Below are positions 26,790 through 64,000 of a stretch of DNA of 64,000 nucleotides, piece after piece. Location of the stretch: the NCBI GenBank assembly GCA_963767125.1, contig CAVYDB010000007.1:78083-142082 (forward strand), written 5' to 3'. The first letter of the stretch is position 1; each line of letters begins with the position of its first letter. Origin of the DNA: an uncultured Bacteroidota bacterium. Lineage in GTDB: Bacteria > Bacteroidota > Bacteroidia > JABEUT01. The notes beneath the pieces are model-generated. The model had not been told where the DNA came from, did not search any database, and saw only the letters and a program-made list of their open reading frames with translations. Position numbers and translations under genes: made by a program.

Positions 26790-27422
26790 TTAGGTCAACT
26801 CCAGCTTCCCTCTTACCAAATAAACCCCTAATACATCTTTCCGCTTTATTTCCATAGGCTCAAACTTTTCGTTGGCGCTTTTCAAAATAAATAAGGTTTT
26901 ATTAGAAGTATGAGGATGTATGTATTTCAATACGGAATAGTCGGCAAGCAGCACTATATGCGGCTCTCCGTAAGATATATGGCTTTGGTCATTTATTTTT
27001 TTACAAACTACAATATCACCGTTGCAATATTTGGGATACATGCTATGTCCATTTACACGCACTGCAATATGGCAGTCTTTAAAATGAGGAATAGTTAAAA
27101 AATAAGAAGCGTTTTTCACCTGTTCACCAAAGTTATTTACGTTGCCGCCTGTAACACTGGCTTCATAAAAAGGAATTTGAACCTCAGGCTCAGGGGTATG
27201 TGCCACTTTCGGTTCTTTTAACAGCCCTTTTTGAATCTTGGGGTTGTCTAAATCAAATCCAATGTGTCTAATTTTGTCTATATAATAGTCGTCCAGTATT
27301 TCCCGTTTAAAGAGAAGATACACATTCGCCCTTGATATTCCCATACCATCGGCAACTTCAGTAACGGTAAGGTTACTGTTATTTACCAGTTTTTTAAAAT
27401 ATTCTCCCTGATGCATAAGCAA
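26790..27422 (-). CDS. Phage CI-like repressor (HTH + S24/LexA-type peptidase domain)
   Basis: N-terminal HTH LTVTEVADGMGISRANVYLLFKRE. The C-terminal VRVNGHSMYPKYCNGDIVVCKK shows the S24 Ser/Lys arrangement. The gene is divergent from a Cro-like gene. Confidence 0.8.
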   Translation of the reverse strand: MLMHQGEYFKKLVNNSNLTVTEVADGMGISRANVYLLFKREILDDYYIDKIRHIGFDLDNPKIQKGLLKEPKVAHTPEPEVQIPFYEASVTGGNVNNFGEQVKNASYFLTIPHFKDCHIAVRVNGHSMYPKYCNGDIVVCKKINDQSHISYGEPHIVLLADYSVLKYIHPHTSNKTLFILKSANEKFEPMEIKRKDVLGVYLVRGKLELT

Positions 27423-27446
27423 TTAATAGCAGTGTTAATAATTTAG

Positions 27447-27505
27447 TGTCCATTTATTTGACATTCATATAATCTATCGTCTACTTTTGTGTCCAATTTA
27501 TGACG
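27447..27505. promoter_or_regulatory. Operator-like repeats in the repressor/cro divergent region
   Basis: GTGTCCATTTATTTGAC (27447-27463) and GTGTCCAATTTATGAC (27490-27505). An inverted half-site TGACACAC lies at ~27523-27530. Confidence 0.5.
27483..27490 (+). promoter_or_regulatory. -7 box TACTTTTG for the rightward (cro-like) transcript
   Basis: Matches TAnnTTTG. Its last base is the first base of the second operator repeat. Confidence 0.45.
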
Positions 27506-27745
27506 CAAATATATACAAAAATGACACACCCGACACTTACCCAAAAAATGCGCAGCCTGGCACAACGTGACCGGGACCTGCAAATTGCTATTGCCCAGGA
27601 AATTGGAATAGCCATAGTCACTATTTACCAATGGGCAAAATATTATCCCGAACGGCTTGCAAAGAACAGGGCAGCGTTGAGAGTAATTCTTCAATATATG
27701 AAGGAAAACAAAAAAACAGTAAAGCAGCAATTCACAAAAAATTAA
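27500..27745 (+). CDS. Cro/Ner-like small HTH protein
   Basis: 81 aa with HTH IAIAQEIGIAIVTIYQWAKYYP, first gene of the rightward early operon. The start may be Met 27521. Confidence 0.6.
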   Translation: MTQIYTKMTHPTLTQKMRSLAQRDRDLQIAIAQEIGIAIVTIYQWAKYYPERLAKNRAALRVILQYMKENKKTVKQQFTKN

Positions 27746-27755
27746 ACCTATCACC

Positions 27756-27887
27756 ATGTTAAACAAATTCAAAACACACTGCATACTGCGCAGGCAAAAA
27801 AGCAGCATTACTGTATGGCTCATCCTAATTGTACTAACAGAACTGCTGGTTTTGGGCTTACTGACATGGTTCATATTTCAGGCCTGA
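27756..27887 (+). CDS. Small single-TM protein (43 aa)
   Basis: Own reading: MLNKFKTHCILRRQKSSITVWLILIVLTELLVLGLLTWFIFQA. It is below the track size cut-off. Confidence 0.3.
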   Translation: MLNKFKTHCILRRQKSSITVWLILIVLTELLVLGLLTWFIFQA

Positions 27888-27920
27888 ATCTTATATCTTT
27901 TATACTTAATTATTTTTATT

Positions 27921-28127
27921 ATGAATACTACTCATCACGCGCAAACACCCGGGGATAAATTTCCGGCGGGGAGTTTAAACACAAAAGACATTCAGTTTAC
28001 CCAGGCGAAAAAAGCAAGTGATAAACCGGAAGAAACATTCATCATTCACGATGCAAAAATTATTACTCCCCGGCCTTATGGAGTATTTGCCTTATGTAAA
28101 ATTTTTGAACACCTGCAGATTAACTAA
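27921..28127 (+). CDS. Hypothetical early phage protein
   Basis: 68-aa ORF in the early operon orientation. No motif. Confidence 0.4.
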   Translation: MNTTHHAQTPGDKFPAGSLNTKDIQFTQAKKASDKPEETFIIHDAKIITPRPYGVFALCKIFEHLQIN

Positions 28128-28437
28128 CCCGGATAGCTATCGGCAACCGGCCAATTACCAAACCGTGCCAAAAATTATGATAACCATGCAAAACGGACAA
28201 ACAATAACAGCTTCCCCGCCGGAAAGCTTTCGCAAAAAATGGGAAAGGCTTCCTGCCGATGAATACCTGTATCGCTACCTGCTGGCAAATACTCCTCTTA
28301 CAGCCTGCAATGACGGGCTGCCTGATGAAGAACAAAAGGTGCTGAAATATTTCGGAGTAAAATACTGGGAACCGGGGACTGAAGAGGTGGAATTTCAAGG
28401 AAAAAAGTACAAATCGGTTATACCTTATGAGTTATGA
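28018..28437 (+). CDS. Hypothetical early phage protein (start uncertain, possibly ATG ~28176)
   Basis: The 139-aa track ORF overlaps the previous ORF. The C-terminal part is acidic/aromatic and has no motif. Confidence 0.4.
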   Translation: MINRKKHSSFTMQKLLLPGLMEYLPYVKFLNTCRLTNPDSYRQPANYQTVPKIMITMQNGQTITASPPESFRKKWERLPADEYLYRYLLANTPLTACNDGLPDEEQKVLKYFGVKYWEPGTEEVEFQGKKYKSVIPYEL

Positions 28438-28791
28438 GTTATCTACAAATACTACTTACTATTTACTCAATATGGATCATAACTTATAACTGACAAAATG
28501 AAATACTACGAATTTAATTACACAAACGGCTCTTATCAAATAAATAGCAACCCCGGCTTTAATCCCCTGTGGATAGCAGCAGCGCTGGGTTTATTAATGC
28601 TTCTTATCGCTTTACTATACCATTAATATGATACAATTCTCAACCTGTAAAGGAGCCCTGTTTCACCTTATTCCGTTGCCCTTTGTGGCGATGGGAAAAT
28701 GTGAGGCATGCAATGCAATCGTGTTATTACCCGGCATAAACACAGGTACTGAAATATTTACCATTCAACTACATTTTAAATCAACAAAACC

Positions 28792-29118
28792 ATGAAAAGG
28801 ATAGAAACAAGAAACGAGGTAAAAGCCATAGTAGATATGAACCCCGATGGAATTTCACTTACGCATTTGATGAATAAATTTCAGCGCATTACAACCCGCC
28901 TCCAACTGCGCACTATGCTGGGTGCGCTTTTTACCAACAGCGAAATAAGCAGGGAACGGATTTGCATACACAACCGACGGGTAACAAAATATTTCCCTTT
29001 TAACGGTACCCCGCCTGTGAAAAAAAAGAGAAACAAGGTAAAAGAAAGAAACAGGAAAATGCTGTCTATGAAAGATTTTATGCCGGGCAGAAAATACAGC
29101 CCCTACATAGATTTTTAA
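28792..29118 (+). CDS. Hypothetical basic protein, possible winged-helix DNA binder
   Basis: 108 aa. ISLTHLMNKFQRITTRLQLRTMLGALF followed by the basic tail VKKKRNKVKERNRK. Inference only. Confidence 0.4.
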   Translation: MKRIETRNEVKAIVDMNPDGISLTHLMNKFQRITTRLQLRTMLGALFTNSEISRERICIHNRRVTKYFPFNGTPPVKKKRNKVKERNRKMLSMKDFMPGRKYSPYIDF

Positions 29119-29256
29119 CTCATTACGGAAGCAATAATGGAACCGGTTAAGTTGACAGAAGCTGCAGGCGCGCTGATAATCGTATGGATTATTGTGCTGC
29201 TTTCCTGGGAAGAATTTATAGCGTGGTGGACCAATAGAGATAATGATAATTGAGAT

Positions 29257-29877
29257 ATGGGCAAAGATCCGGCATTCCTGTTTTACACTTCCGATTTCCT
29301 GATGGGAACTATGCTGTTGTCGTTTGAAGACAGGGGGAAATACATCACCCTGCTGTCTTACATGCACCAGTCGGGCAGGGCAACTGAAGAAACAGTAAAG
29401 TCGCTGGTGGGAGATACTTCAGCCAAACTAAAAATAAAATTTAAAATAGATACTAAAGGATTATGGTATAATGAACGGCTGGAGCAAGAGATTGCAAGGC
29501 GTAAAAAATTTTCAACCCGTTGCCGTGGTAATGGAAAATTAGGGGGGAGGCCACCACTTGGAAATCCTAAAATAATTTCACTTGAATCTCAGGGAAATGA
29601 AAAATATCCGTTTGAGAAATTCTGGAAGATGTATGACAAACCTACCGAAAAAATAAGTTGTGCATTAAAGTGGGTAAAGTTAACTGAAAATGAAAAAGAA
29701 CAAATCTTTCAGCGCCTGCCTGCTTATGTAACTGCCACACCCGAAAGGCAGTTCCGGAAGAACCCGCTCACCTATTTAAACCGCAAAGCCTGGATGGATG
29801 AGATATTGCCGGAACCTCATAAACCGGTTAAAAAATCGGCCATTGAAATATTGGTGGAAACAGGAAAGTATGAATAA
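29257..29877 (+). CDS. DUF1376 (YdaU-like) phage replication-associated protein
   Basis: N-terminal PAFLFYTSDFLMGTMLLSFEDRGKYITLLSYMH is the DUF1376 signature. Confidence 0.65.
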   Translation: MGKDPAFLFYTSDFLMGTMLLSFEDRGKYITLLSYMHQSGRATEETVKSLVGDTSAKLKIKFKIDTKGLWYNERLEQEIARRKKFSTRCRGNGKLGGRPPLGNPKIISLESQGNEKYPFEKFWKMYDKPTEKISCALKWVKLTENEKEQIFQRLPAYVTATPERQFRKNPLTYLNRKAWMDEILPEPHKPVKKSAIEILVETGKYE

Positions 29878-30415
29878 CCGCCCAAAAATAGCATCGCTCA
29901 CAGAAAAGGAACTTGGCGCCCTTTTGTCAGCGGCATTTTTCATTATAGGGAAGGATATTCGGTTACCGGCAGATAAATTAAAACTGTTTTTAGGAGAAGT
30001 ATATAAGTACCAGGGAGGGAAATATGTGGATGATTTCAATGAAGCATTTTCAAAATATGCAGCGCTTGAATTACCGAATGCTGAAACCCTGCGCCCGCAG
30101 GTATCGCCATTATTTATTAGCAGCCTGATGAAATTATATGCGAACAGGAATTCCAATAGCAGCCCGGCAAAAAAAACAGTAAAAGATAAACTGCTTGTTT
30201 TGACCCCTGAAAATAAATTTACACTTTTTGTTAAATATATTACCACCGGCAAAAGCCTGCCGGGTAACCCTGACTGGGTAACTATTTACGAATACCTCAC
30301 CGGGATAAATAAACTCCTCCTTCACCCGGAATGGGGCTCTATGGGTTACCACCATAAATGGAAATATGCCATGCAAACGCTTACAGAGTGGGCTTACAGG
30401 AACTATAACCTATGA
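29870..30415 (+). CDS. Hypothetical early phage protein
   Basis: ATG 29870 overlaps the upstream stop (ATGA). The track ORF starts earlier, inside the previous gene. Confidence 0.5.
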   Translation: MNNRPKIASLTEKELGALLSAAFFIIGKDIRLPADKLKLFLGEVYKYQGGKYVDDFNEAFSKYAALELPNAETLRPQVSPLFISSLMKLYANRNSNSSPAKKTVKDKLLVLTPENKFTLFVKYITTGKSLPGNPDWVTIYEYLTGINKLLLHPEWGSMGYHHKWKYAMQTLTEWAYRNYNL

Positions 30416-30434
30416 AAGATGAACAAGAAAACAA

Positions 30435-30698
30435 ATGAACAATATGAAAAAAATAGCGGCAATGCAGGAATACCTTCAACAGCTTTATGAAACGTATGAT
30501 GTGTTTCAAACGGAGTACAGGCACTTACACAAACGTTCAAAAATGCACGATACCGAACCGGTGGCTGAATACTACCTCCGCTGGAGAGACCGTATGCGGG
30601 CGGAAATACGAAGGATTGAAACGTTACTGATTAAGCTCCTGCCCTACCCCTGCAAACCGTGTATCAATACCGGAATAGAGATGAATGATAAGGTATAA
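30435..30698 (+). CDS. Hypothetical early phage protein
   Basis: 87 aa, helical, same orientation. Confidence 0.45.
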   Translation: MNNMKKIAAMQEYLQQLYETYDVFQTEYRHLHKRSKMHDTEPVAEYYLRWRDRMRAEIRRIETLLIKLLPYPCKPCINTGIEMNDKV

Positions 30699-30757
30699 GT
30701 TAATTACAAATTTATCATTCATTATAACTCATAACTTATAGCTCATACCTGAATTTC

Positions 30758-30982
30758 ATGTCTTATAGTTTCCTCAACCGCTACTGCACCATAACAGCAA
30801 ACCTGCCGGAAACAGGCATTACCACCTTTACCGGGTGGATTACCGATGCCGATAAACACGCCTTGCTCATTATGGATGAATACGATAACAACCACCTGGT
30901 AAAAAGAGAGGAACTGGTAGGGGATATTGTGGTGCTGCTGGAGCAGAAGGTGATGAATCTTGAAATAGTGACCCAGTATTAA
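30758..30982 (+). CDS. Hypothetical early phage protein
   Basis: 74 aa, last ORF of the rightward block. Confidence 0.4.
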   Translation: MSYSFLNRYCTITANLPETGITTFTGWITDADKHALLIMDEYDNNHLVKREELVGDIVVLLEQKVMNLEIVTQY

Positions 30983-31225: not shown

Positions 31226-33313
31226 TTATTTCACCACATCCACCCGTTGAACCAGGGTGCTGCCATTTTGCAAAATCACTTTCAGGATATAAACTCCGGT
31301 AGGGAATTGGCTGGTATTGATAACCGATAATTGTGAATTTTCTGAACCATTGAATTGGTGGGCATAAACTTGCTGGCCGGTAATAGAATATACTTCTATA
31401 GACTGAGCCGCTTTCTGCCCTTGTAATTGAACGGTAAATTCATCGGTGGCAGGATTAGGATATACTGCTATGCGGGCATTATTGGTAATAGTGGGGACAC
31501 CTACCGTGCAACTGCTTACAATAATACTCTGCTGGGCGGTACTGCCACATCCGGCTGAATCGGTATAAGAGTACGTAAAATTATATGTACCTGGTCCGGC
31601 AGCATTTGGGTTAAACACGTTCCCTGTTAAATTTGGGCCACCATACATACCACCGGCAGGAATACCAAAAAGGGTGTCTGCCAATAAGGAATCGCAAGCA
31701 GAATAAATCCCTGCATTCAGAATAACAAGCGGTATAGGCAGCGTGGTAACATACGCTTGCGCTGAATCATAACAGCCATTGGTATCATTTACAAATACAT
31801 AATATCCTATAGTACCTGTATCGGCAGGAACAGTAAGGGTATCTTCGGTTTGTCCATTATAATCCCAGGTATAAGTCAGCGGACCCATTCCGCCGGAAGC
31901 CCCGGCAGTCAATAATACCTCCGTATTAGCACATATTGATGGGTTTGGAGGGGTCAGCGTAATCGTAATAGCAGCAGGTTGGGTAATTACCACCGTACCC
32001 GTACCGGAACATCCTATACCATCGGTAATAGTAACCGTATAAGTTCCGGCAGATACATTGTCAACTTCAGAATTGGTACTGCCCGTTGGCGACCAGGAGT
32101 AAGTATAAGGAGCAAAAGGAGAAACCGGGAATGCTACAATTATACCATCGGTGCCTCCGTTACATTCCGGGTAGTTATATGATACCGCAGTGGCAGAGTC
32201 GCCCACACAGCCCGGGGTGATTTTTCTAATCCTGTTGTTTCCCAGGTCAGATATAAAGAGGTTTCCGTTCGCATCGGGTATCGCATCAAACGCATAATTT
32301 ATTTCAGCAAGATAAGCCGCTCCGCCATCGCCGCTAAATCCGGCAGTGTTATCTCCGGCAATGGCATACATAGTATTATTACTTGCAACTACTTCCCAAA
32401 CTAAGGCATTACCCGGGTCGGAAATAAAAACATTACCGTTAGCATCGGTAGTTACATTGGTAGGGTCCCAAATTTCGGTAGTATCAGGTGTGCCTGAAAA
32501 CCCGTTAAAACCTGGTGTCCGGTTTCCGGCAAATGTGCTGATTACCCCTGCGGCAGTAACCTTACGAACATCATTGCTATTATATTCGGCTATATACATA
32601 TTTCCGGTAGGGTCAATAGCTACACCGGCCGGTTGGTTTAATTCAGCAAGGGTAGCCTGTGCGCCGTCGCCGGAAAAGCCTCCATTATTTGTGCCTGCTC
32701 CAAAACCATTTCCCGCTACTGTTGTTATAACTCCGGTGCCTACGGTTACTTTACGAATTACATGGTTGGTTTGGTCAGCTATATATACGTTCTGCGCATT
32801 ATCAAGGCATATTCCCGTGGGGTCGGCAAATTCAGCCGCCGTAGCTTGTCCGCCATTGCCGGTATATCCTCCAAAACCGTTTCCGGCTATGGTGCTTATT
32901 CTTCCTGTACCCACAGTTATCTTGCGGATAACACCGTTTCCGTTATCAGAGAAATAAACATTCCCCGTCGGGTCAACACGTACACACACCGGGTAGTCTA
33001 TTTCTGCCGCCGTAGCAAGCCCACCATCGCCGGTATAACCGCCAACACCTCGTCCGCCTATCGTGGTTATAAGCCCCGTGGTGCTTACCTTACGGATACG
33101 GTTATTTTGAGAATCGGCTATATATATATTGCCGGTAGCATCTACGGCAACACTGTTGTTTTGGTCCAGGTCGGCAAGCGTAGCCTGTATATTATCTCCA
33201 TTATACCCGGCTGCAGCTCGGCCGGCTACGGTAGATATGATTCCCGATTGGGCATGCAACATGGCAAGGGACGAACCCAGCGCAACGAATGTAAATGCAA
33301 GTAGTTTTTTCAT
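31226..33313 (-). CDS. NHL-repeat + SprB-type repeat protein with T9SS C-terminal sorting domain
   Basis: Signal peptide ...LAMLHAQ. About seven repeats follow of the type TVAG.G..GY.GDGG.AT.AE...P.GV..D..GN.YIAD..N..IRKV. A Cys-rich SprB-like segment (CNGGTDG...YTYSWSPTG...GTYTVTITDGIGCS) comes next. The C-terminus is VYPNPATDEFTV...IEVYSITGQQVY...TGVYILKV. Confidence 0.7.
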   Translation of the reverse strand: MKKLLAFTFVALGSSLAMLHAQSGIISTVAGRAAAGYNGDNIQATLADLDQNNSVAVDATGNIYIADSQNNRIRKVSTTGLITTIGGRGVGGYTGDGGLATAAEIDYPVCVRVDPTGNVYFSDNGNGVIRKITVGTGRISTIAGNGFGGYTGNGGQATAAEFADPTGICLDNAQNVYIADQTNHVIRKVTVGTGVITTVAGNGFGAGTNNGGFSGDGAQATLAELNQPAGVAIDPTGNMYIAEYNSNDVRKVTAAGVISTFAGNRTPGFNGFSGTPDTTEIWDPTNVTTDANGNVFISDPGNALVWEVVASNNTMYAIAGDNTAGFSGDGGAAYLAEINYAFDAIPDANGNLFISDLGNNRIRKITPGCVGDSATAVSYNYPECNGGTDGIIVAFPVSPFAPYTYSWSPTGSTNSEVDNVSAGTYTVTITDGIGCSGTGTVVITQPAAITITLTPPNPSICANTEVLLTAGASGGMGPLTYTWDYNGQTEDTLTVPADTGTIGYYVFVNDTNGCYDSAQAYVTTLPIPLVILNAGIYSACDSLLADTLFGIPAGGMYGGPNLTGNVFNPNAAGPGTYNFTYSYTDSAGCGSTAQQSIIVSSCTVGVPTITNNARIAVYPNPATDEFTVQLQGQKAAQSIEVYSITGQQVYAHQFNGSENSQLSVINTSQFPTGVYILKVILQNGSTLVQRVDVVK

Positions 33314-33745
33314 AGTTTTATAATAAAATAAATTTAGCAGTTTTAATGATTAATTTTTTTTAAGTTTCAAGGTTCTCTGAAAGGCGTTACAAAAATCAAT
33401 ATGCAATATTACAAAAAATATGCTTCTGTGCAACAAAAAGCATAAATTATTAGTAATTTATTAATAACCAGTGACATTTCATCTCCGTTTATCTTGTTTT
33501 CAAGTAGGTTTTATTACCAGGTAGGTTTATAACAAAAGATTCTGAAAGCCCGATAATATAGATTTCTTTCCAGACCTGATGGGGGTATATCTGTACTGGG
33601 TTTTAAGTGAGAACGGCGAATTAGAGGGGAAGGGGGAAGTGGGGGCATATCCTTTTAAGCTTGGCTTTGTTTGTAAGTACAACTTACTTGTTATTAACCC
33701 ACTAAGCACAGCTTAGCGGGTACGGGGGCTTGGGGCATAACCTAC

Positions 33746-35128: not shown

Positions 35129-35313
35129 AGCATTTAATTTTGACCAAATATGATTATTCAAATCCTTTTTGTCAAGCTACATTTATTAAATGGCGGGTTT
35201 GACTTATTAAACGGTGGGTTTTGGGGGATAAAAAGAGGTTTTATCGCTCTATAATCACCTTCCCTTCCCCGAACCCCGCTCTTTCCTCCCCCCCATGGGG
35301 GAGAGCATATCTT

Positions 35314-52971: not shown

Positions 52972-53082
52972 ATTGTTTGTTTGTGGTAAGGAGTAAGGGA
53001 TATGAGATAAATTATTTAAGCTCTATATTATTACTTGTGGCTTACTACTTACTTCCTATTCCATATCCCCACTCTCTCGCTG

Positions 53083-55203: not shown

Positions 55204-55284
55204 TTTATATTCCGATAAGAAACGTGCAAAGTAAATATACCCATTAAAAGAGCGTTTTCTTAATAGGTCATTAACTTATCTGTT

Positions 55285-56055: not shown

Positions 56056-56179
56056 GACTTCCGCTAAGGGGGAGATAAATTCAAGTTAAAGATATATTAT
56101 TTCCGGATACATCTCTCCGTCTATTAAAAATAAATATTAACTTTATTGAGACGGTTAACATATTGCCCTACCGGGTATA

Positions 56180-56392
56180 TTATTCCTCCATGATGCCCAG
56201 TTTTTTAAGGCAGTGGCACAGTTCTATCCATAATTCACCTATACGTTCCTGGGTGAGATTACCGGTATCTATATGAAAAAAGAACCGTATCCAGGCAGCC
56301 CATTTTAAGGTCTCGCTTGCTTCGAAATCTCCGGAATACTTATCTAATTTTTTTTTAACAAATCGCGGGCTACCATAATAAGCCCCAGACAA
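56180..56392 (-). CDS. -1 frame extension of the tail assembly chaperone
   Basis: The ORF is open in the -1 frame across the A9 run. After slippage it would read ...LLKKKLDKYSGDFEASETLKW... Confidence 0.55.
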   Translation of the reverse strand: MSGAYYGSPRFVKKKLDKYSGDFEASETLKWAAWIRFFFHIDTGNLTQERIGELWIELCHCLKKLGIMEE

Positions 56393-56739
56393 TAGTCAAT
56401 AGCGCCCAAATAGTACGCGTCGTTGTCATTATCACGGTCAAACACCCTTGCGTCTGACGCTTCTTTTATCACCGTAGCATCAAACAGCATAGCGCTTGCT
56501 TTCGATGGGCTTTGGTAAGACAAATCCATACACTGCATTTTAGTAAATGTAGTGGCGGCAGAAAAATAAACCACACAGGGTTTATCTTCCTTACCCATGC
56601 TTAAAATTGCGGCATTTACTTTGCCTTTATACCTCGCTTCCAGTTCCAGCCTTTTTGCTTCGGCATCAGCGCGCAATTGTTCACTATTTCTTTTTTCGTT
56701 TTCCGGTTTTCTCATACCTTTTAAAATTTCAAGCATCAA
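56344..56739 (-). CDS. Tail assembly chaperone (zero-frame product)
   Basis: 131 aa, directly after the tube-sized gene. It ends in ...LLKKN* within an A9 run. Confidence 0.6.
   Translation of the reverse strand: MMLEILKGMRKPENEKRNSEQLRADAEAKRLELEARYKGKVNAAILSMGKEDKPCVVYFSAATTFTKMQCMDLSYQSPSKASAMLFDATVIKEASDARVFDRDNDNDAYYLGAIDYCLGLIMVARDLLKKN
56348..56356 (-). other. Slippery sequence A AAA AAA (A9) for programmed -1 frameshifting
   Basis: The minus strand reads TTA AAA AAA AAT TAG. The heptamer fits X XXY YYZ, two codons before the zero-frame stop. Confidence 0.6.
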
Positions 56740-56806
56740 TCAGGTGGATGGGAACAGCTCAGGAGATACATGAACTATAAGTTCCCGCGTATCTCTTATA
56801 TCAGCC

Positions 56807-57232
56807 TTAGCTGTTCCAGTTAATATTTCCTATCAGCAGGGGAATTTTCATCACCAGTTTTTTATCATTTGTTTTTGCTGAAAAAGGGTTTTTCATAAAT
56901 ACGCAGCTTTGCAGGGTATCTATGGTTAATGCCTGGCTGGTGTTACCATATATCACTTTAATGGTGAATGCCGGTATAAGCTGTATTTTCCCTAATGGAG
57001 CCAGCGCAATAATATTGTTTATTTCCTCTTTGAAAAGCTCGATGGAGCCGGTGTATTTAAACTGACCATAGCCTTGCCCTATGGGAAAGTTGCCGGCGCC
57101 ATAGTTGTTTTCCATGGCTTGCTCTTCATCATATTCTATAGATGTGATGCCTACCAGTGGTGTAGTGCCGAAAAGCATTACCTGCACGTCGCCCCAGCTG
57201 TAATTAATGCCGTTTATAAGTGGATTTGCCAT
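56807..57232 (-). CDS. Tail tube protein candidate
   Basis: 141 aa, lying between the sheath-sized gene and the chaperone pair. Positional call. Confidence 0.5.
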   Translation of the reverse strand: MANPLINGINYSWGDVQVMLFGTTPLVGITSIEYDEEQAMENNYGAGNFPIGQGYGQFKYTGSIELFKEEINNIIALAPLGKIQLIPAFTIKVIYGNTSQALTIDTLQSCVFMKNPFSAKTNDKKLVMKIPLLIGNINWNS

Positions 57233-57288
57233 ATTTTTAAATTAATTTGATGATTTGGTAATTTGAAGATTTGATAATACTGTGAACT

Positions 57289-58869
57289 TTATAAGCTGAC
57301 TGCAAATTGAAGGTTAATGACTATTTCCCTTGCTACGCCCACCGGTTGCAGCAATACAGTTACTACCAGCGTACTTGTGCTTAACACATTTTGCGCCGGA
57401 TTAATATTCACTTTAAAGCCACTTAATTCCGGCCGGCCGGTATTGGGGTTTGTTTGAGCCATATTACTCAGCGCCTGTTCACCAATTCCTTCAAAAAAAG
57501 CAACGGTGGAATTAGTCAGTGTCCCATCGGCATTTACCGTTAATGGGGCAGCGAGTTGCTCAATATAGGCTGCATATAACTGGCGTGAAGCTTTATCGAA
57601 TGTGCGGTTATTTTCAATATAGGCGTAATCGGAGGTATAGGCTGTGCAGCAATGCGAATCATTTACATACGTTCCGTTCGGACTGTCGTTTATAAACTGC
57701 CGCCCGAAGATATACCGGAATGCATCCACCGAATTAATAGTGCCCGCGCTTAATGTACTTAATAATTCAGGTGTAACTCCAGCCCCACTAATGGTAGTGG
57801 CAAAAGCAGGAACGGCATTTTCTATTCCATCGGGGCTTAAGGTATAAGTGGCTACCCAGGCTATATCGTCAGAAACCTGCGATGCCGAAACCAGGCCCAA
57901 CACATCGCCAAGCTGGGTAACTGAAAAACCTTGTGCATAAAATATTCCTGCTCCTGTAGCCGCCCCATCCTGACCTATTACCAGGCTCACATGCTCTGAA
58001 CCTAATATGGAGAGGTCACTTAAACCGGAGGCGCCGTTGGTAAGGGTTGCAAAATCAGTCCCCACAATGGCGCTTAACGGGGCATTATTGGCTATCAATG
58101 TTTTTATTTGTGCTTCAATAGCGGTTACATAATCCAACGTTTGCTCTAACGTGGAAAAAGGGGTAGGTATATATACGCCTAATTGCCTTATGGCGCCGCC
58201 TGCAAAAGCCTGCATGCTCCCTACTTCGGGGAAAGCATAAGCATCTCCCGGCGATTCATCGAATATTCCAACATATAAGGTGGAATTGGGACTTTGGGTA
58301 AAGTACCGGTTTATATGATACCAGGTATTTAAAACCGAAGCTATACCCCCGGAAAAATTATGCGTCATGGTTCCTGCAATCGTTCCGGTGATATTCACGC
58401 TTAAAGGGGTATTCGGCGAGTTTGGGTATAGCCCAAGCCCGGGGCGTGCCTTAATAGTAACTGCCCCTGCCGTATTACTTGCAGTGTAGCCTGTTAAATT
58501 CGTATTGATGGCTTTAACGATACTATCTGCCAGAAGAGTGACAGAAGTATCGCCCGCTGAACGGGTATAGGTACACAATGTTATTAAATTGGTGTACTCC
58601 TGCACCTGGAATACCATAGTATCACCCGCTGCTCCGTATCCGGTTATTGTATATTCGGCAGTAGCTGCATCTTCATCTGAATAGTTTCCGGCAGATACCG
58701 GTATTATTCCTGCATTGATAGCATCCTGTATCCCGCCGAATTTGGCAATTCCCCCGGAAGGAAACAGAGTGGGCGCCGTGCCATAAAATACCAACCCGGA
58801 AATAAAATCCTGCCCTGATGGTTGCCGTCCAAGCCCGCCCTGTCCCCTGTTTATTATTACGTTATTCAT
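57289..58869 (-). CDS. Tail sheath protein candidate
   Basis: 526 aa, first large gene after the head genes, followed by the tube-sized gene and the frameshifting chaperone. Positional call, no named motif. Confidence 0.45.
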   Translation of the reverse strand: MNNVIINRGQGGLGRQPSGQDFISGLVFYGTAPTLFPSGGIAKFGGIQDAINAGIIPVSAGNYSDEDAATAEYTITGYGAAGDTMVFQVQEYTNLITLCTYTRSAGDTSVTLLADSIVKAINTNLTGYTASNTAGAVTIKARPGLGLYPNSPNTPLSVNITGTIAGTMTHNFSGGIASVLNTWYHINRYFTQSPNSTLYVGIFDESPGDAYAFPEVGSMQAFAGGAIRQLGVYIPTPFSTLEQTLDYVTAIEAQIKTLIANNAPLSAIVGTDFATLTNGASGLSDLSILGSEHVSLVIGQDGAATGAGIFYAQGFSVTQLGDVLGLVSASQVSDDIAWVATYTLSPDGIENAVPAFATTISGAGVTPELLSTLSAGTINSVDAFRYIFGRQFINDSPNGTYVNDSHCCTAYTSDYAYIENNRTFDKASRQLYAAYIEQLAAPLTVNADGTLTNSTVAFFEGIGEQALSNMAQTNPNTGRPELSGFKVNINPAQNVLSTSTLVVTVLLQPVGVAREIVINLQFAVSL

Positions 58870-58943
58870 GTGTGTTTAAAGTTTAATTATTAGTTATTAT
58901 AAATATGTTTTACTGTTTTATTTTCTTATTTCATAGGTCACCG

Positions 58944-59414
58944 CTACTTCACCAGCTTTTGCAAGGCTTCCGTTATTGCTTTCACGGGGCTGTCTTCGTC
59001 ATTATCTGTTTCAGCTTTTTGTTTTGCCTTCATTGCCCTTTGTTCTGCTTTGTATGCCGAAATAATTTCATCTTTGTTTTCCAGTACCTCGTCCCTGGAG
59101 TATTCCTTTATCACTGCTTTACGAGCAATATATTTTCCGGCTAACAAAACTTTCTTCTGTCTTTTACCCTGCTTTATCAGCGTAGCCTCGGTTGCTATTT
59201 TAGGGTCGAGGTCAACATATTCATGCAGGTCGCCCCCGGGGGAGAAGAAATACCCATCGGAAGTGATATACACCCGGCTGACATGCCCGCATAGCGCATG
59301 CTCAAGCGCATTGATAAGATTATACGCCTGCAGGCTGGTCAGTTCGGGAATTGGGTTTCCCTGAAAGAGGCTTTTTTCAACTTTAACAATAGGGTTAAGG
59401 GTTTTTACCGGCAT
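58944..59414 (-). CDS. Hypothetical head-tail joining region protein
   Basis: 156 aa with a Lys/Glu-rich C-terminal tail. Confidence 0.4.
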   Translation of the reverse strand: MPVKTLNPIVKVEKSLFQGNPIPELTSLQAYNLINALEHALCGHVSRVYITSDGYFFSPGGDLHEYVDLDPKIATEATLIKQGKRQKKVLLAGKYIARKAVIKEYSRDEVLENKDEIISAYKAEQRAMKAKQKAETDNDEDSPVKAITEALQKLVK

Positions 59415-59509
59415 TTTATTAGAGATTGATTATTATTGATTAGCTATAAGATGTTAGATAAAAGATAGTTGAAAACCACCTGTTAATTCCACCGTGTATT
59501 ACTTCCTTT

Positions 59510-59995
59510 TTAGTTTCCTGCCATGTACGAGGTTTCCCTCCAGGCATTTCCATCGAACATGAAAGTGATGTGATATGACTTTTTGGCTGCCACCGGGATA
59601 TTCAAATTAAAACCTTTAAACCCTTTGGTGAAGATGACGTGCTTTCTGAGAAAAAGCGTATCGGCGCCTACACACTGGAATTCGATTTTATCGCAAACAT
59701 TGCTGCGGGTAGTATTCGCATATAAGTACAAGGTGTCTTTTATGCTATCGCCCGGCTGTATAAAAGTTTCAAATCCGTGGGGAGTAAATTTTGCCGTATC
59801 GTGGTACCCGGTATCTTTTGGGGTATAATAATAATAAGTAAGCACCCTGCCTGTATTGTCGTCATTGGGTACTATACCGAAACGGGGAGATACGTTTTGG
59901 GCGAAACAGCTGAACGCAATTAAGTTGAAAGCAAATATAACTCCGCCGGATTTCAGAATTTTTGAAATACTATTTCTTATTTGATTTTTCTTCAT
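59510..59995 (-). CDS. Secreted protein inserted between capsid and tail genes
   Basis: Signal GVIFAFNLIAFSCFAQ. 161 aa, no motif. Confidence 0.5.
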   Translation of the reverse strand: MKKNQIRNSISKILKSGGVIFAFNLIAFSCFAQNVSPRFGIVPNDDNTGRVLTYYYYTPKDTGYHDTAKFTPHGFETFIQPGDSIKDTLYLYANTTRSNVCDKIEFQCVGADTLFLRKHVIFTKGFKGFNLNIPVAAKKSYHITFMFDGNAWRETSYMAGN

Positions 59996-60106
59996 GATTT
60001 TATTTTTTTAACTTTTTTAATATATACTTTTTATCTTTTCGGGGTATTCCCCCGGAAGACTGTTTCCAATACTCCGGGGTATTTACCCTAATCAACCCTA
60101 TGAAAA

Positions 60107-61123
60107 TTAATGTGTAATATTTGTGAATAGTACCATTTGGTCGCCCCAGCCGTGGTTTACATCCACTTTAAAAATCCCTTTTACATACCACAGGTCGCTG
60201 GGATTGCTGGTTTTTTTCATTTCAAGTTGAACATCATCGGTACTGTTTACACCAATCCAAAGGTTGCTTTGAATATCCGGTCGCCCGACGGTAAGGAACA
60301 TGGTTCCCGGGTTCAATCCTGCCAGCGGAACAATATCGTGACCTTTATACCGGTTGATACCGCTTTGGGTGGAGTCAATATTCTTATGCGCATCCTGACG
60401 TAAGGCCTCTTCGTAAATATCCTGGTCGGAATAACTCATAAAATATCTCAATCCTAATGGACCGTAACGATAGCATAAAGCTTTGCTGAGGGTATTATTC
60501 ATAAGGGTTTGGCGCATGGAAGTAAGCCTGTCCCTTATATTGGTGTAATCGTAGGATGTCCAGGAAAGGGTTTGTACCGTGGAATCACTTAATGCCTTGT
60601 AAAGGAACCCGTCGAACATATAGTCGGCATTGGTCTGTAACGTATTGTCGGTATAGCCTTTGCCGGTGGGAGCCACATTAGCTCCTGCGGGGTCAAACAT
60701 CAATCGTGAATTCCAGAATGCTGTTTCAAAATATTCGTTCAGGCGCTTCATGTATTGCAGCATAATGAAGTTCTCTGCTGTTGGGGGCAGCGTGCGGTCA
60801 ATGAGCCTGTCTTGTTCAAATTGTTCAGCGAAAAAATGCTGTTCAAAATCGGCAGGATTAAACTCCTGGTACATTTCAAACTTTTGGGGATCGAGTACAC
60901 GCCCATCCACCGTTATGTTCCCTGAGCTTACGGGAGTTGCAGCATAATGCTGTATTAGCCCGCTTACTTCCACACGCGGTATGGTTACTTGCTTGCGGAT
61001 TCCATCTACCACGTTGGCACAACCTTTTACTATTGTGTCCACGTCAACAACAGCGCGGGTTATCATATAGTCGAGTGCGGGACCCGACCAGCTTGTGTCT
61101 GTAATATTCAGTACGTCTGCCAT
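60107..61123 (-). CDS. Major capsid protein
   Basis: 338 aa, immediately downstream of the protease-scaffold gene. Size and position are typical; no motif checked. Confidence 0.65.
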   Translation of the reverse strand: MADVLNITDTSWSGPALDYMITRAVVDVDTIVKGCANVVDGIRKQVTIPRVEVSGLIQHYAATPVSSGNITVDGRVLDPQKFEMYQEFNPADFEQHFFAEQFEQDRLIDRTLPPTAENFIMLQYMKRLNEYFETAFWNSRLMFDPAGANVAPTGKGYTDNTLQTNADYMFDGFLYKALSDSTVQTLSWTSYDYTNIRDRLTSMRQTLMNNTLSKALCYRYGPLGLRYFMSYSDQDIYEEALRQDAHKNIDSTQSGINRYKGHDIVPLAGLNPGTMFLTVGRPDIQSNLWIGVNSTDDVQLEMKKTSNPSDLWYVKGIFKVDVNHGWGDQMVLFTNITH

Positions 61124-61161
61124 GTTAATTTATTTAAGATTTAAAATTTATGAACTACGAT

Positions 61162-62298
61162 TTATTGTTTCTGTTTTTCACTGATTGTCCTGCGCTTTGC
61201 TGCCATAAATGAGCCAATATTTACAGGCTGTTCCATCCCTCCGGCATTTTCAATATGAATTTTTGCAGCAGCCCGGTAAGAGGATAACCCATCAATGAGA
61301 GAGCGGGTGCGGTCTTTATCGGCTACATATAAATCGACCCAGGCATTTTTAGCTTCAGCTTTTAGCTTGCCCGTTTTTACTGCCTCATTCACCACTGTTT
61401 CAGCCTCTGCTTTTAGTACAAGGGCTTCGGCTTCCTTCCTTTTATTCTTCAAAGTTTCAGCTTCCAGTTTGGTTACTTTACACTCCTCTTCCATCGCTGC
61501 ATACTTCTCTCTCAGCTCAGTCAATTCTTTTTCTTTAGCTACAATGGTCTCTGAAAGTTTATCCAATTCTTCATTAGATGGGATGCTGTTCTTAATAGCT
61601 TTCACAGCTTTGATGAATTCCTTTTCCGAAGCATTTTCCGGAAGTTCGAGCAGGTTTGCAAGTCCTTTCATATATTCTGTTTGTTTTGATTCAATACTAT
61701 TTACCACTTCCAGCAGTTTTTTATGGGCTGCCTGTGGAGTAGTTTTATTGGTGATTTTTGGCAAATTGGCATCAGTGGTAATGTCCACAATCTCATCTAC
61801 CAACTTATTTTCCAACGATTCTTCAGCGTTCAGCCAGGAGGTTTTGTCCATTAAATCACTCATCTCCGATTCTGAAATTCCTGTACGCGGGCAAAGCATT
61901 TTTATAAGAGTTTCTTTCAGGGTATCTAACTCTTTGCTATCGCCTCCGCTGGGGTTGTGAAGCATTACCTGTCCCCAGGGAACCATTTTGCGGGTTCTGC
62001 CTGCCTGGAGAATTACACCAGCCATACTTACTGCTATACCCACACATACCGTATCTACCGGAATGGTGCAGGATTTGATAGCAGAATAAATAGTCATGCC
62101 ATCTATAATAGAACCGCCGAGGCTATTGATGTGAACCTCTATCCCTTTTTTAGCTTGCTTTTCAAGACACGTTAAATATTCCGCAAACTCTTTCCCGCTA
62201 ATCCCGCTAATGGTACCATCTTCATTACGCTCCTCCCCTATTACATCGTAAAGTTGCAATACCGGGATTTCGTCGTTTTCGTTTTTACAGAATATCAT
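61162..62298 (-). CDS. Prohead protease (ClpP/S14-like) fused to scaffold-like coiled coil
   Basis: The N-terminus is IEVHINSLGGSIIDGMTIYSAI...VCVGIAVSMAGVILQAG...VMLHNPSGG, the ClpP-fold Ser/His context. The C-terminal 170 aa are Glu/Lys/Ala-rich coiled coil. Confidence 0.8.
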   Translation of the reverse strand: MIFCKNENDEIPVLQLYDVIGEERNEDGTISGISGKEFAEYLTCLEKQAKKGIEVHINSLGGSIIDGMTIYSAIKSCTIPVDTVCVGIAVSMAGVILQAGRTRKMVPWGQVMLHNPSGGDSKELDTLKETLIKMLCPRTGISESEMSDLMDKTSWLNAEESLENKLVDEIVDITTDANLPKITNKTTPQAAHKKLLEVVNSIESKQTEYMKGLANLLELPENASEKEFIKAVKAIKNSIPSNEELDKLSETIVAKEKELTELREKYAAMEEECKVTKLEAETLKNKRKEAEALVLKAEAETVVNEAVKTGKLKAEAKNAWVDLYVADKDRTRSLIDGLSSYRAAAKIHIENAGGMEQPVNIGSFMAAKRRTISEKQKQ

Positions 62299-62337: not shown

Positions 62338-62392
62338 CAAAAATAAATGGTGAAAAAGGGTGTTCATAAAAAGTCAATGAGAAGTCATTGAC
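62338..62392 (-). promoter_or_regulatory. Composite late promoter with duplicated palindrome
   Basis: Cores GTCAATGAG (62373-62381) and GTCATTGAC (62384-62392). A 27-nt gap separates the first core from TATTTTTG (minus strand, 62338-62345). It lies 39 nt upstream of ATG 62298. Confidence 0.6.
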
Positions 62393-62491
62393 CGGTCCCG
62401 AAAAAAACATCTTATGATTTACCTTTGCATATATCTGAAAAGGGCTTCTGCAAAAGGGTTAAAGTCAATATAAGATATTCAAAATCTACTT

Positions 62492-62719
62492 ATGGCGCTT
62501 AGTTACCGCAAACAAATACAATCCAGCTTAAGTCCCCGGTACAAATTGCTGTTGCTTGCTTTCCGCAACCTAACAGGGAAAGACAACGAAGCCCATGCCA
62601 TTCGTTCTATTATCGAAGAAAAATTTGACAAGCTGCCCTTGCCCGATAAACTGATGTTTAAGCGTTATATCGAAAAGCATTTCCCCGATGATGCAAGTGT
62701 AATGCAGGGGATGGAGTGA
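62492..62719 (+). CDS. Hypothetical small protein
   Basis: 75 aa, plus strand, followed by the hairpin TTTTACC-N5-GGTAAAA. Confidence 0.4.
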   Translation: MALSYRKQIQSSLSPRYKLLLLAFRNLTGKDNEAHAIRSIIEEKFDKLPLPDKLMFKRYIEKHFPDDASVMQGME

Positions 62720-62856
62720 TATTATTCCCTTTTTACCTGAGGGGTAAAATTGTAACTTGAAGATTTCCTATTCCTTTCCGGTCAACTGCATCATAAAACC
62801 ATACTTAAAAAATTATGGTTCAGTTACTATTGTCCCGGGATATGAGTGCTTATTAT

Positions 62857-63002
62857 TTGCGGCGGCATTTGCGGTGTGATTTAAAGTTTGTAAATGTACA
62901 CTAAACATTTAATTATCAGATTATTATATTATACATTAAAAACTTAATCAGTGTACTGTACGGGCAATAATTGCGGCGCGAATTAAAGCAACAATTGCGG
63001 TG
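62857..63002. repeat. Iteron-like TTGCGG[CT]G repeats flanking an AT-rich core
   Basis: TTGCGGCG at 62857 and 62971; TTGCGGTG at 62869 and 62995. ATTTAAAG/AATTAAAG lies next to each pair. The ~80-nt AT-rich segment between them contains the inverted TGTACACT/AGTGTAC. Confidence 0.6.
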
Positions 63003-63114
63003 TAAATTGTGCTATAAAATATAAGCATAAAAAAAACCTATTCTGCCGGTGGATACCATTTGCAACCTCGAAGATAATTTTACATAAATTCCCAGGTATT
63101 AATTCCTTTACTTC

Positions 63115-63122
63115 TATATTTG
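63115..63122 (+). promoter_or_regulatory. -7 box TATATTTG
   Basis: Matches TAnnTTTG, 22 nt upstream of ATG 63145. Confidence 0.45.
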
Positions 63123-63144
63123 CTTACTAGAATTACCCATAAAA

Positions 63145-63693
63145 ATGACCCACTATATCCTCTTCACAGCCGAAGTGCAAATACATACATCTGCGAGGTT
63201 GCGCAAAGCAATTACCGATTCGTATAATGCCGGGGCAAGCTCACTTTATATTGCTATATCATCAGGCGGGGGGCTTATTTCCGAAGGGTTGTCGTTAGCT
63301 GCTTTATTAAGGAGCCTGCCGATAGAAGTGATAACCCATAACATAGGGCAAACAGACTCTATAGCCAACGTTATTTTTGCTTCCGGTAAAAAAAGATACG
63401 CCACAGCTACTGCCAGTTTTCTTTTTCATGGGGTAAGCCAGCCTCTTAATAGCAATATGTCGGAAACGCAATTGTACGAATCGTACACCAATTTGGTAAG
63501 GTTAAGGGAATCAATTGCCCTGCATTTTTCATCTTATACCGGTATTCCATTGGAAGATATTACTAACCTGATGGTGGACGGTGGGAAAATACTTTCTGCT
63601 ACCGATGCCCTTAACAGAAATATCATTCACGAAATGCGAAATTTTAATGTGCCTGCGGGAACTTCCATTATTTCGATAGGCAACGAACCATAG
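63145..63693 (+). CDS. ClpP-fold serine protease-like protein (second copy, non-structural orientation)
   Basis: 182 aa. LYIAISSGGGLISEGLSLAALLRSL...THNIGQTDSIANVIFASG...FLFHG parallels the ClpP/S14 layout (..INSPGG.., Ser, His). Confidence 0.55.
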   Translation: MTHYILFTAEVQIHTSARLRKAITDSYNAGASSLYIAISSGGGLISEGLSLAALLRSLPIEVITHNIGQTDSIANVIFASGKKRYATATASFLFHGVSQPLNSNMSETQLYESYTNLVRLRESIALHFSSYTGIPLEDITNLMVDGGKILSATDALNRNIIHEMRNFNVPAGTSIISIGNEP

Positions 63694-63731
63694 AAAGTTT
63701 ATAAAGTCTTTACTTTTGACTTTATAAACTT

Positions 63732-64000
63732 TTAACTTTTCACTAAAATTTCCTGCCCGTTAACATTTATCGTGAGAGCGCCATCAGCATTCATTGAAGC
63801 GGAAAAAGAGGTTAGCGTTTTGCCATCCAGTTTTAGCTGCTGGTTAATAGTGTTGCTAAGCTGCTGCCCTGTCCCCGGTGAATTAAGATAATTGGGTGCG
63901 GCGCATCCCACTAATGGAAACTGTTTCCACCAGCCCGGGTAGCTTAAAATTATATCCTCTGCTTCTTGCAATGTTGTGTCATCTACTGAAAAATCTCCGT
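63732..64000 (-). CDS. Hypothetical protein, C-terminal part (gene continues beyond window)
   Basis: The track starts it at TTG 63971, but the frame stays open to base 64000 (..GDFSVDDTTLQEAEDIIL..). Confidence 0.4.
   Translation of the reverse strand, partial: GDFSVDDTTLQEAEDIILSYPGWWKQFPLVGCAAPNYLNSPGTGQQLSNTINQQLKLDGKTLTSFSASMNADGALTINVNGQEILVKS

Follow-up and report, generated by a model that had tools for sequence, protein, structure and literature searches.

A phage-derived particle gene set dispersed among cellular genes and tagged by a shared 44-nt promoter in a Bacteroidota genome

PBSX of Bacillus subtilis is a contractile-tailed defective prophage that is held by a repressor, is induced by DNA damage, lyses its own cell, and packages host DNA. 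The R/F-pyocin regulon of Pseudomonas aeruginosa combines PrtR, an S24 repressor, with PrtN and P-box promoters. Only a few lineages are known to have gene transfer agents (GTAs) or PBSX-type particles. The multi-locus GTAs include RcGTA of Rhodobacter capsulatus (PMC5026251), CcGTA of Caulobacter (bioRxiv 10.1101/2023.11.12.565669), and FpGTA of Faecalibacterium, whose two operons lie about 125 kb apart (PMC12946183). Particles unable to carry their own genes are the defining property of a GTA (PMC5026251, PMC7947584). For other phyla, it is still to be determined which gene clusters underlie GTA-like packaging (PMC12946183), and no Bacteroidota GTA gene cluster is described in the literature that we searched. 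Here, we analyze a 64,000-nucleotide stretch of DNA (the window) from an uncultured Bacteroidota bacterium (GenBank assembly GCA_963767125.1, contig CAVYDB010000007.1, positions 78,083 to 142,082). Its phage-like genes, which a preliminary description had taken for one prophage-like element, very probably belong to a dispersed, selectively maintained, and co-tagged phage-derived system and not to an excisable prophage.

The source is a 3.55-Mb metagenome-assembled genome (MAG), here called G000, that is 79% complete and consists of 49 contigs; the window is C7:78083-142082 of the 360-kb contig C7. Positions are those of the window, and coordinates above 64000 are window equivalents (C7 position minus 78082). 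A right-hand extension (L001-L003) was read over window-equivalent 63919-123918. The limits first proposed, a start at 26790 and an unseen right end beyond 64000, did not hold: the gene for the large terminase subunit, TerL, lies to the left at 8841-10214 and belongs to the set, and the late genes reach 83352. Extension to the right had been proposed as the way to find an integrase and an att site; neither was found, and the missing head genes were, broken up by cellular genes. The late genes thus lie in pieces over about 75 kb, and the essential genes are not in one stretch.

What the pieces share is a 44-nt composite promoter. In the sense of transcription, it consists of GTCAWTGAC-TTTTT, about 22 nt, and TAnnTTTG(C), the last part being the Bacteroidota -7 box; the GTCAWTGAC dyad is centered about 39 nt upstream of that box. 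The dyad occurs 18 times in the 3.55 Mb of G000. Within the window, 5 occurrences were observed against 0.19 expected, and 0 of 100 shuffles reached 5. On C7, eight copies (at 10487, 46029, 48578, 53118, 62384, 67785, 70123, and 83484) are all intergenic and upstream of minus-strand units. The units so tagged are, in the same order, TerL; fibers plus lysis; the spike; the hub; protease to tape measure; head-accessory genes with a gp25-like gene; 69711 plus the lysozyme-domain gene; and a 342-aa gene plus the portal. Three more full copies stand one before each of three genes resembling that of the small terminase subunit, TerS (C14:31817, C20:55862, and C25:85398).

Within the window, the minus-strand copy at TerL (10452-10495) runs GTCAATGAC ... 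TATTTTTG. The copies of the fiber and lysis unit (45994-46037) and of the hub unit (53083-53126) are strict matches, and the spike unit has its copy at 48543-48586, all on the minus strand. At 62338-62428 lies a bidirectional late promoter region in which a double palindrome and a TATTTTTG box point toward the protease gene and a TACCTTTG box on the plus strand precedes a 75-aa gene (62492-62719) and a ClpP-like gene. The double palindrome before the protease gene is also present in two genomes of the same genus, G019 and G023. Beyond the tagged units, G000 appears to hold no other convincing copies. Relaxed matches at C13:57959, before a nucleotidyltransferase/HEPN-like pair, and at C49:102152 look like chance or unrelated sequences. 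The composite was absent from four complete free phages and from 80 IMG/VR loci (961 kb), and the strict pattern was absent from 23 genomes outside the genus; a reversed control gave one match.

Sheath relatives in IMG/VR number 219, at 36-45% identity, so that the unusual myovirus lineage considered in the preliminary description is true of the ancestry; it does not fit the chromosomal copy. Four relatives listed as 100% complete (36.3-37.7 kb) were fetched whole: G005 (3300032250_000339), G006, and G007 (IMGVR_UViG_3300011115_000698) have direct terminal repeats, and G004 is listed as linear. Their late genes occupy one strand in a fixed order. TerL is followed by a 282-299-aa gene homologous to 82324-83352, the portal, a MuF-type gene, and small genes; next come homologs of 67126, 66082, 65177, and 64071, then protease, capsid, a small gene, sheath, and tube. 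A chaperone-position gene, the tape measure, a 170-210-aa gene (duplicated in G000 as 51874 and 52429), and the hub follow, and the series ends with the spike (46683), a 102-aa gene homologous to 63732-64046, a homolog of 46070, and a large fiber gene. The chromosomal late genes keep this order and orientation and therefore derive from one phage of this family. Identity to the complete free phages is 47-51% for the capsid and 38-45% for the sheath, and TerL is 32-36% identical to its homolog in G004-G007, which immediately precedes the 299-aa and portal genes. The capsid is also distantly related to that of Bacteroides phage p00.

The chromosomal set thus resembles the IMG/VR myophages of 36-37.6 kb in late gene order and in having homologous TerL, portal, protease, capsid, sheath, tube, hub, spike, gp25-like protein, and DUF1376 initiator. 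The phages, however, are contiguous, use one strand, have their own replication genes, and lack the GTCAWTGAC promoter, whereas the chromosomal set is split among host genes. The free relatives carry DnaB beside the DUF1376 initiator, a RecT-like protein, a 537-aa MuF, PolA, a VapE primase-helicase, and a methylase. No counterpart of any of these was found in the element; a single DnaB match, on C10, is probably the host's own gene. MuF, present in G007, is absent from both G000 and G019.

The largest piece is the head/tail core unit (53923-62298, minus strand), identified by PHROG matches and following the order of G004-G007. It opens with the prohead protease (61162-62298), followed by the major capsid protein (60107-61123), the sheath (57289-58869), and the tube (56807-57232), with phrog_907 and phrog_4579 among the contractile-tail matches. 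After the tube come a chaperone-position open reading frame (ORF), a 256-aa lipoprotein, and a 426-aa tape-measure-position ORF. Between capsid and sheath lie two small ORFs (58944-59414 and 59510-59995, minus strand), where one had been counted before. The adjoining hub unit (50501-53126 including its promoter copy, minus strand) encodes a 432-aa baseplate hub (50501-51799; phrog_4930, E = 1e-30, with phrog_5233 in the same unit scan) and two tandem 180-aa paralogs that are 60% identical (51874-52971) and correspond to a single copy in the free phages and in G019.

The baseplate/spike unit (46070-48586, minus strand) encodes 159-aa, 131-aa PKD-domain, 298-aa spike, and 184-aa proteins in the order seen in the relatives. 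Baseplate proteins gave no significant sequence match when compared with PDB sequences, and fold comparison alone gave the spike and the gp25-like protein. The AlphaFold model of the 298-aa protein (46683-47579, minus strand), which is of lower confidence, matched P2 gpV, the R2 pyocin spike, and the Mu baseplate at a probability of about 0.9 and a low TM-score in a fold search, and we read this protein as a putative gpV-type central spike. The 104-aa protein at 63732-64046 (minus strand) was modeled with a pLDDT of 87 and matched T4 gp25, the Pam3 baseplate, and Geobacter 2ia7 with Foldseek probabilities of 0.98-0.99. It is thus a predicted gp25/gpW-like sheath initiator, and it is displaced from the baseplate block: its homolog in the free phages is flanked by the spike gene and the next baseplate gene. 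The displacement is the same in G019, G023, and the metagenome contig L141. The structural set had been called sparse, with gp25/gpW-, gpJ-, and gpI-like wedge proteins unrecognized. With sheath, tube, and hub, and with the predicted spike and gp25-like protein, the core of a contractile tail is present, and the set is not sparse. Structure prediction on late ORFs, which had been suggested as a check, supplied these two proteins; gpJ- and gpI-type wedge proteins were identified neither there nor in the other comparisons.

As had been noted, the late genes are on the minus strand with the lysis cassette nearest the early block. This cassette (41996-43682, minus strand) encodes a 74-aa holin-like protein, a GH108 endolysin (42879-43445, minus strand; Pfam GH108, E = 3e-20; phrog_315), an 84-aa membrane protein, and a 176-aa protein that ends in a C-terminal transmembrane segment; it is 58-76% identical in G016 and G019. 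Two proteins of 294 and 425 aa (43716-46037 including the promoter copy, minus strand) occupy the tail-fiber position, after the baseplate as in the relatives, and their conservation in congeners is confined to the N-terminal part.

The packaging and portal genes lie outside the limits first set. TerL (457 aa, intact, minus strand; Terminase_3 PF04466, E = 6e-46) stands alone some 70 kb away from its phage neighbors, flanked by genes for a RibD_C-domain protein and an adenosine deaminase. Between it and the repressor are the adenosine deaminase, an S41 peptidase, an FAD monooxygenase, a TetR gene, a ferritin, and tRNA-Cys. The leader of TerL (10215-10450, 230-nt) holds a 59-codon ORF that, by eye, is faintly like the N-terminal part of the TerS-like genes. 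The latter are three paralogs of 134-141 aa, mutually 57-77% identical (C14:31359-31784, C20:about 55926-56327, and C25:84937-85341), which we read as small-terminase-like by position only, since the G019 homolog lies directly upstream of TerL.

To the right, the minus-strand block at 64071-69628 encodes proteins of 355 aa (with a fiber-like C-terminal part), 288 aa, 308 aa, 183 aa, and 375 aa, the last with a lysozyme domain (68501-69628). A 40-aa duplication, 87% identical, links 69306-69425 in the lysozyme-domain gene with 67762-67986, a small plus-strand ORF beside the 67785 promoter. A 10.3-kb insert then parts the portal from the next phage gene. It comprises two T9SS (type IX secretion system) genes (70386-73500), a 1414-aa ORF (73792-78036, or L001:9874-14118, plus strand) that has no Pfam match and is not at that place in G019 or G023, an aldo-keto reductase (78393-79412; PF00248, E = 3e-80), an anti-repressor (79471-80028), and a 169-aa ORF. 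Beyond it are the Mu-type portal (80694-82205, minus strand; Portal_Mu PF06074, E = 1e-47) and its 342-aa partner (82324-83352, minus strand), one end of which is Mu gp36-like (E = 2e-8). Right of 83352 are host genes: more T9SS genes, Fic, and thiolase.

The same arrangement recurs in other genomes. The genus sample comprised 18 genomes, many of them incomplete MAGs, of which G012, G014, G016, G019, and G023 were compared with G000. In G019, contig C35 carries in order the 342-aa gene, the portal, the reductase (80% identity, opposite strand), T9SS genes, the counterparts of 69711, 67126, 66082, and 65177, the gp25-like gene, the 75-aa gene, protease, capsid, lysis genes, and the ortholog of T9SS gene 31226, with promoter copies before the same units as in G000. 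G023 has the same parts on C30 with local inversions; the reductase and a T9SS gene flank the element there, and the contig ends before the portal. G016 also carries the end of the late region that comprises lysis and baseplate genes. In G019, TerS and TerL, preceded by the same promoter, are found among GDP-sugar genes on a contig of 13 kb.

Four Joint Genome Institute (JGI) metagenome contigs from other samples (L141-L144; L141 is Ga0134125_10000098, 129.5 kb) encode a portal that is 75-77% identical, and in them a T9SS gene lies upstream of the promoter and the 342-aa gene, where TerL would be expected. No TerL, TerS, or MuF gene was found within 10 kb on these contigs. The reductase lies past the portal on the opposite strand, immediately next to it in L141 and 1.4-3.7 kb away in L142-L144; it is 77-80% identical across G019 and the metagenome contigs. 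The right flank of L142 keeps an outer membrane protein (OMP)-like host gene that is syntenic with G000. In L141, the spike follows the gp25-like gene by about 1.1 kb without the 16-kb protease-to-hub block between them; the block is elsewhere, so the dispersal pattern differs between lineages. The insertions, the displacement of the gp25-like gene, the loss of MuF, the detachment of TerL, and the convergent early block are shared derived states and no peculiarity of a single genome or assembly.

These dispersed genes are well conserved. Relative to G019 and G023, identity is 86-90% for the capsid, 93-94% for the tube, 77-81% for the protease, and 74% for the portal; for the host thiolase it is 83-85%, so capsid and tube are conserved at least as well as a host gene. 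Between G000 and congeners, the proportion of synonymous differences (pS, Nei-Gojobori) was 0.58-0.94, which is saturated, in element genes and the host-type reductase alike. The nonsynonymous proportion (pN) was 0.04-0.42 overall and 0.04-0.37 in phage-derived genes other than TerL; it was lowest in the tube (0.04), 0.07-0.09 in the capsid, and highest in TerL (0.33-0.42). In the compared genomes, the ORFs are full length throughout. As the split state is shared, divergence to synonymous saturation took place once the phage was no longer a single packageable unit, and the ORFs nevertheless remained intact, which argues for selection on the chromosomal copies.

An excisable prophage would be expected to have an integrase, att repeats, and one contiguous stretch of genes, and none of these was found. 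ORFs from 5311 to window-equivalent 95889 were scanned (Pfam, PHROG) for integrase and other mobility and replication families. No tyrosine or serine integrase or excisionase matched among the element ORFs, and no integrase, transposase, helicase, or polymerase family matched among the scanned ORFs; the reported absence of integrase, excisionase, transposase, helicase, and primase was thus borne out in every scan. Repeat analysis of 24000-64000 revealed no flanking direct or att-like repeats, and tblastn detected no second phage copy elsewhere in G000. tRNA-Cys (25154-25225, minus strand) is, as described, parted from the repressor by a T9SS gene (25285-26679), and the sole tRNA-derived repeats (24979-25152) are on the side of tRNA-Cys away from the phage-like genes. 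These are two perfect 87-bp tandem units repeating the tRNA-Cys 3' end (repeat family D7), which resemble an integration footprint with no connection to the present element.

The regulatory genes lie at the left of the phage-like region. A 210-aa CI/LexA-type repressor (26790-27422, minus strand; PF00717, E = 1.6e-11; phrog_4, E = 8e-15) combines an N-terminal helix-turn-helix with an S24 self-cleaving peptidase domain bearing a GHSM serine motif. Full-length homologs in G014, G016, and G019 are 75-78% identical, and none was found in ten IMG/VR relatives. The identification as a CI/S24 repressor therefore stands; the Cro-like gene, by its sequence, is most likely the ORF at 27500-27745 (plus strand, 81 aa) rather than that at 27921-28127. 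This ORF is divergent from the repressor, with a 77-bp intergenic region between the two starts, and reads as a probable helix-turn-helix protein; its alignment with the P22 C2 DNA-binding domain is weak and nonsignificant (E about 0.4). The minus-strand ORF at 27443-27874 is its antisense shadow, and this antisense signal is kept in G016 and G019. Separately, relatives have a gene for an S24 peptidase domain only (G019 C35:31262-31585, G016 C52:4993-5340, and L141:20395-20703), located on the opposite strand between the homologs of 46070 and 44671 and 63-70% identical to the C-terminal half of the repressor; it is missing from that place in G000, where the gap (45949-46069) is 121 bp.

The early operon of about 7 small ORFs (27921-30982, plus strand) shares its order with G016 and G019. 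The statement that this rightward block has one recognizable function agrees with our scans: the block runs to about 30982, and only the DUF1376 protein at 29257-29877 (plus strand, 206 aa) is recognizable. This replication-initiator-like protein has a DUF1376 N-terminal part, weak in Pfam (E = 0.005), and an initiator C-terminal part; it matches PHROG primosomal and replication-initiation families at E about 1e-10, and a 52%-identical homolog adjoins DnaB in a free phage. No early-block ORF matched a transposase (DDE/MuA) or MuB-type ATPase. From the repressor to the last small ORF, gene order is kept in G016 (C123) and G019 (C134) at 49-78% identity. In G016, as in G000, the early block lies between the ortholog of 31226 and, past a T9SS gene, that of 17094-17480.

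Together, the gene content and its comparison argue with modest confidence for a domesticated, dispersed, repressor-controlled, phage-derived particle system that would be GTA- or PBSX-like. This was the third of the options in the preliminary description and is the reading that we favor, with other details of that description corrected as above. The genes extend over >75 kb plus unlinked loci, and the capsid is 47-51% identical to those of 37-kb phages; particles of that predicted size would therefore be unable to carry their own gene set, a property that would make the system GTA-/PBSX-like. Long-term retention under purifying selection is supported by the shared rearrangements and the intact ORFs. 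The system is set apart from tailocins by its intact and conserved genes for capsid, protease, portal, and TerL.

In the model that we propose, an ancestor of several species of this genus would have captured a contractile-tailed phage of roughly 37 kb. Its replication and recombination genes and MuF would later have been lost and cellular genes inserted, and the set would have broken into blocks: TerS-like; TerL; portal plus the 342-aa gene; head-accessory genes with the gp25-like gene; protease to tape measure; hub; spike; and fiber plus lysis. Each block would have kept its own 44-nt promoter, so that joint switching on stays possible. The S24 repressor and the Cro-like switch (26790-27745) would hold the early operon off until self-cleavage after DNA damage, or the anti-repressor at 79471-80028, relieved repression. 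A further factor acting on the GTCAWTGAC promoters would then bring about co-expression of all blocks. Heads, contractile tails, and terminase would yield DNA-filled particles, and the holin and GH108 endolysin would lyse the cell. Actual GTA-type DNA transfer is possible, though we hold it to be somewhat doubtful. The same reserve applies to the fuller proposal of a Bacteroidota GTA-type system that comprises at least 11 promoter-tagged units and a DNA-damage-sensitive CI-repressor switch and packages host DNA in pieces of about 37 kb, which we put forward only tentatively.

Several observations weigh against a domesticated particle system under this switch. The system is known here from its genes alone, and the head capacity is estimated only from capsid-protein similarity. 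The retained CI/Cro-type switch and replication-initiator-like gene are prophage features, unlike classical GTAs. Capsid and sheath occur in only three of the 18 genus genomes (G000, G019, and G023), a patchy distribution in a sample with many incomplete MAGs. Between G000 and G019, TerL identity is only 52%, and the neighbors of the gene differ; TerL may have been replaced or moved independently. No promoter-reading regulator is recognizable among the Pfam and PHROG matches of the early block. Finally, the promoter is found 16 times in G012, a genome with neither the repressor nor the early block nor this capsid; the regulator may therefore lie elsewhere, and this switch is at most a candidate for its control. 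The promoter may be part of a broader regulon, perhaps one that satellites exploit, and its connection with the CI-type switch is tentative.

G012 and G016 (loci L105-L136) hold 16-18 composite copies on many contigs, many of them before hairpin-rich leaders and small multi-copy proteins. The latter include members of an 'MPFKKGQSGNPxGRPKG...' family (about 100-125 aa), each accompanied by a partner of about 100 aa, as well as helix-turn-helix TerS-like proteins of 114-138 aa, some beside TerL. No member of the GNPxGRPKG family was found in G000. These cassettes may be satellites or mobile promoter cassettes.

How such a gene set came to be can be explained in other ways. It could be an ordinary defective prophage in neutral decay, the result of an old lysogenization scrambled by insertions and T9SS-paralog recombination and without present function. 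The lack of an integrase, a replication module, and MuF fits this explanation, as do the cellular insertions, the scars of T9SS recombination (repeat D4, paralog counts), the patchy distribution in the genus, and the one metagenome relative without the protease-to-hub block at the expected place. Decay, however, would have filled the ORFs with stops and frameshifts at synonymous saturation, and no structural ORF is truncated in G000, G019, or G023, where pN is much lower than pS. Every fragment, the detached TerL and TerS genes included, also keeps the 44-nt promoter. We consider neutral decay unlikely; the term defective prophage, among the options first offered, is right as a description and leaves the intact ORFs across species unexplained. 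More improbable still is that the genes serve as a capsid-donor set exploited by satellites or packaging cassettes, that is, by multi-copy TerS-type modules behind the same promoter. G000 does have three TerS-like paralogs, each with the promoter, for one TerL, and the 16-18 promoter copies of G012 and G016 stand in many cases before small multi-copy proteins, including TerS-like ones beside TerL. Yet no satellite-like island (integrase, replication genes, att) was identified around the TerS-like genes of G000, and G012 has the cassettes without this capsid or sheath.

An intact repressor/Cro switch and lysis cassette, families of Mu type (portal, gp36, and MuF), and a capsid distantly related to that of Bacteroides phage p00 are what a still-functional but unusual temperate phage would show, either a large one with added non-phage genes or a Mu-like transposable one. 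We regard this as very improbable. TerL and TerS are unlinked from the rest, tRNA-Cys and housekeeping genes lie inside the span, and that span exceeds 75 kb, roughly double the genomes of phages whose capsids are 47-51% identical. None of the scanned ORFs matched a DDE transposase or a MuB-type gene, and the relatives use DnaB, PolA, or VapE and terminal repeats. A Mu- or Hankyphage-like transposable phage was accordingly rejected, given the absence of a transposase and free relatives with terminal repeats and DnaB/PolA replication; of the Mu-type genes, portal and gp36 are present here. The assembly itself could in principle be at fault, since the genome is a MAG, 79% complete and in 49 contigs, and a chimeric contig could mix phage and host reads. 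The same interleaving, with the portal beside the reductase, T9SS genes, and promoter copies, occurs in CAIWVW01 and JABDCH01, independent assemblies of other projects, and in four JGI contigs, one of them 129.5 kb long, so that an assembly or binning artifact is extremely unlikely.

Several other genes lie among the blocks. The 10 kb of secreted-protein genes described between the early and late regions was recovered as five T9SS cargo genes (31226-41023; Por_Secre_tail with NHL and beta-propeller bodies, by Pfam). Each has 31-476 paralog matches across the genome, and 31226-33313 is the only one whose position is kept in G016 and G019. The idea that T9SS genes are phage-carried extras was rejected for most of them on these grounds. 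A 230-nt direct repeat, 91% identical (33747-33976 versus 38712-38941), links the 3' end of T9SS gene 33746-35161 with an orphan C-terminal-domain fragment and is evidence of T9SS-paralog recombination in the block between the early and late modules. A PMT_2/ArnT-like membrane glycosyltransferase is inserted at 48819-50456 (plus strand; Pfam PMT_2, E = 4e-10); it has a 57%-identical paralog on C29, and no match was found in G019 or G023 in the comparison made. Near the right end of the window, the conserved 75-aa protein (62492-62719, plus strand) is 79-91% identical in G019 and G023 and is a candidate regulator. The neighboring full-size ClpP-like protease (63145-63693, plus strand, 182 aa; Pfam CLP_protease, E = 7e-14) has no match in either genome.

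If the tentative proposal of a working GTA-type system is correct, this would be the first GTA gene set defined in Bacteroidota, and among the GTAs compared only PBSX would also be contractile-tailed. The locus yields a concrete list of genes that can be tested, and with its 44-nt promoter tag the rest of the system can be located across the genome. A prophage-finding program would report 42-64 kb as an incomplete prophage and overlook TerL, the portal, and the TerS-like genes. With its CI/Cro switch and initiator-like gene remaining and its late genes already dispersed behind their own promoters, the system may be a domestication intermediate, relevant to how host-controlled particle systems evolve from prophages.

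The described systems each match part of this picture. With the pyocin regulon, it shares an S24 repressor on top, a short shared element that tags dispersed phage-derived loci, and lysis that follows; pyocins, however, lack capsid, portal, protease, and terminase, and here all four are present and conserved. Like PBSX, it would be a noninfectious resident element that makes contractile-tailed particles and has a phage-type repressor and lysis genes, but PBSX is one contiguous cluster of about 28 kb, whereas here at least eight promoter-tagged units spread over 75 kb, in addition to the unlinked TerS-like loci. From the multi-locus GTAs (RcGTA, CcGTA, and FpGTA), it differs in its myovirus origin, Mu-type portal, Terminase_3 TerL, and occurrence in Bacteroidota, in keeping a CI/Cro switch and an initiator-like gene, in giving no sign of a shrunken head, and in its patchy distribution. 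It resembles them in having phage head, tail, packaging, and lysis genes at several chromosomal loci, in being without integration and replication machinery, in forming a set that would be too large or dispersed for one particle, in being under purifying selection across species, and in a shared promoter logic that appears to co-activate the loci.

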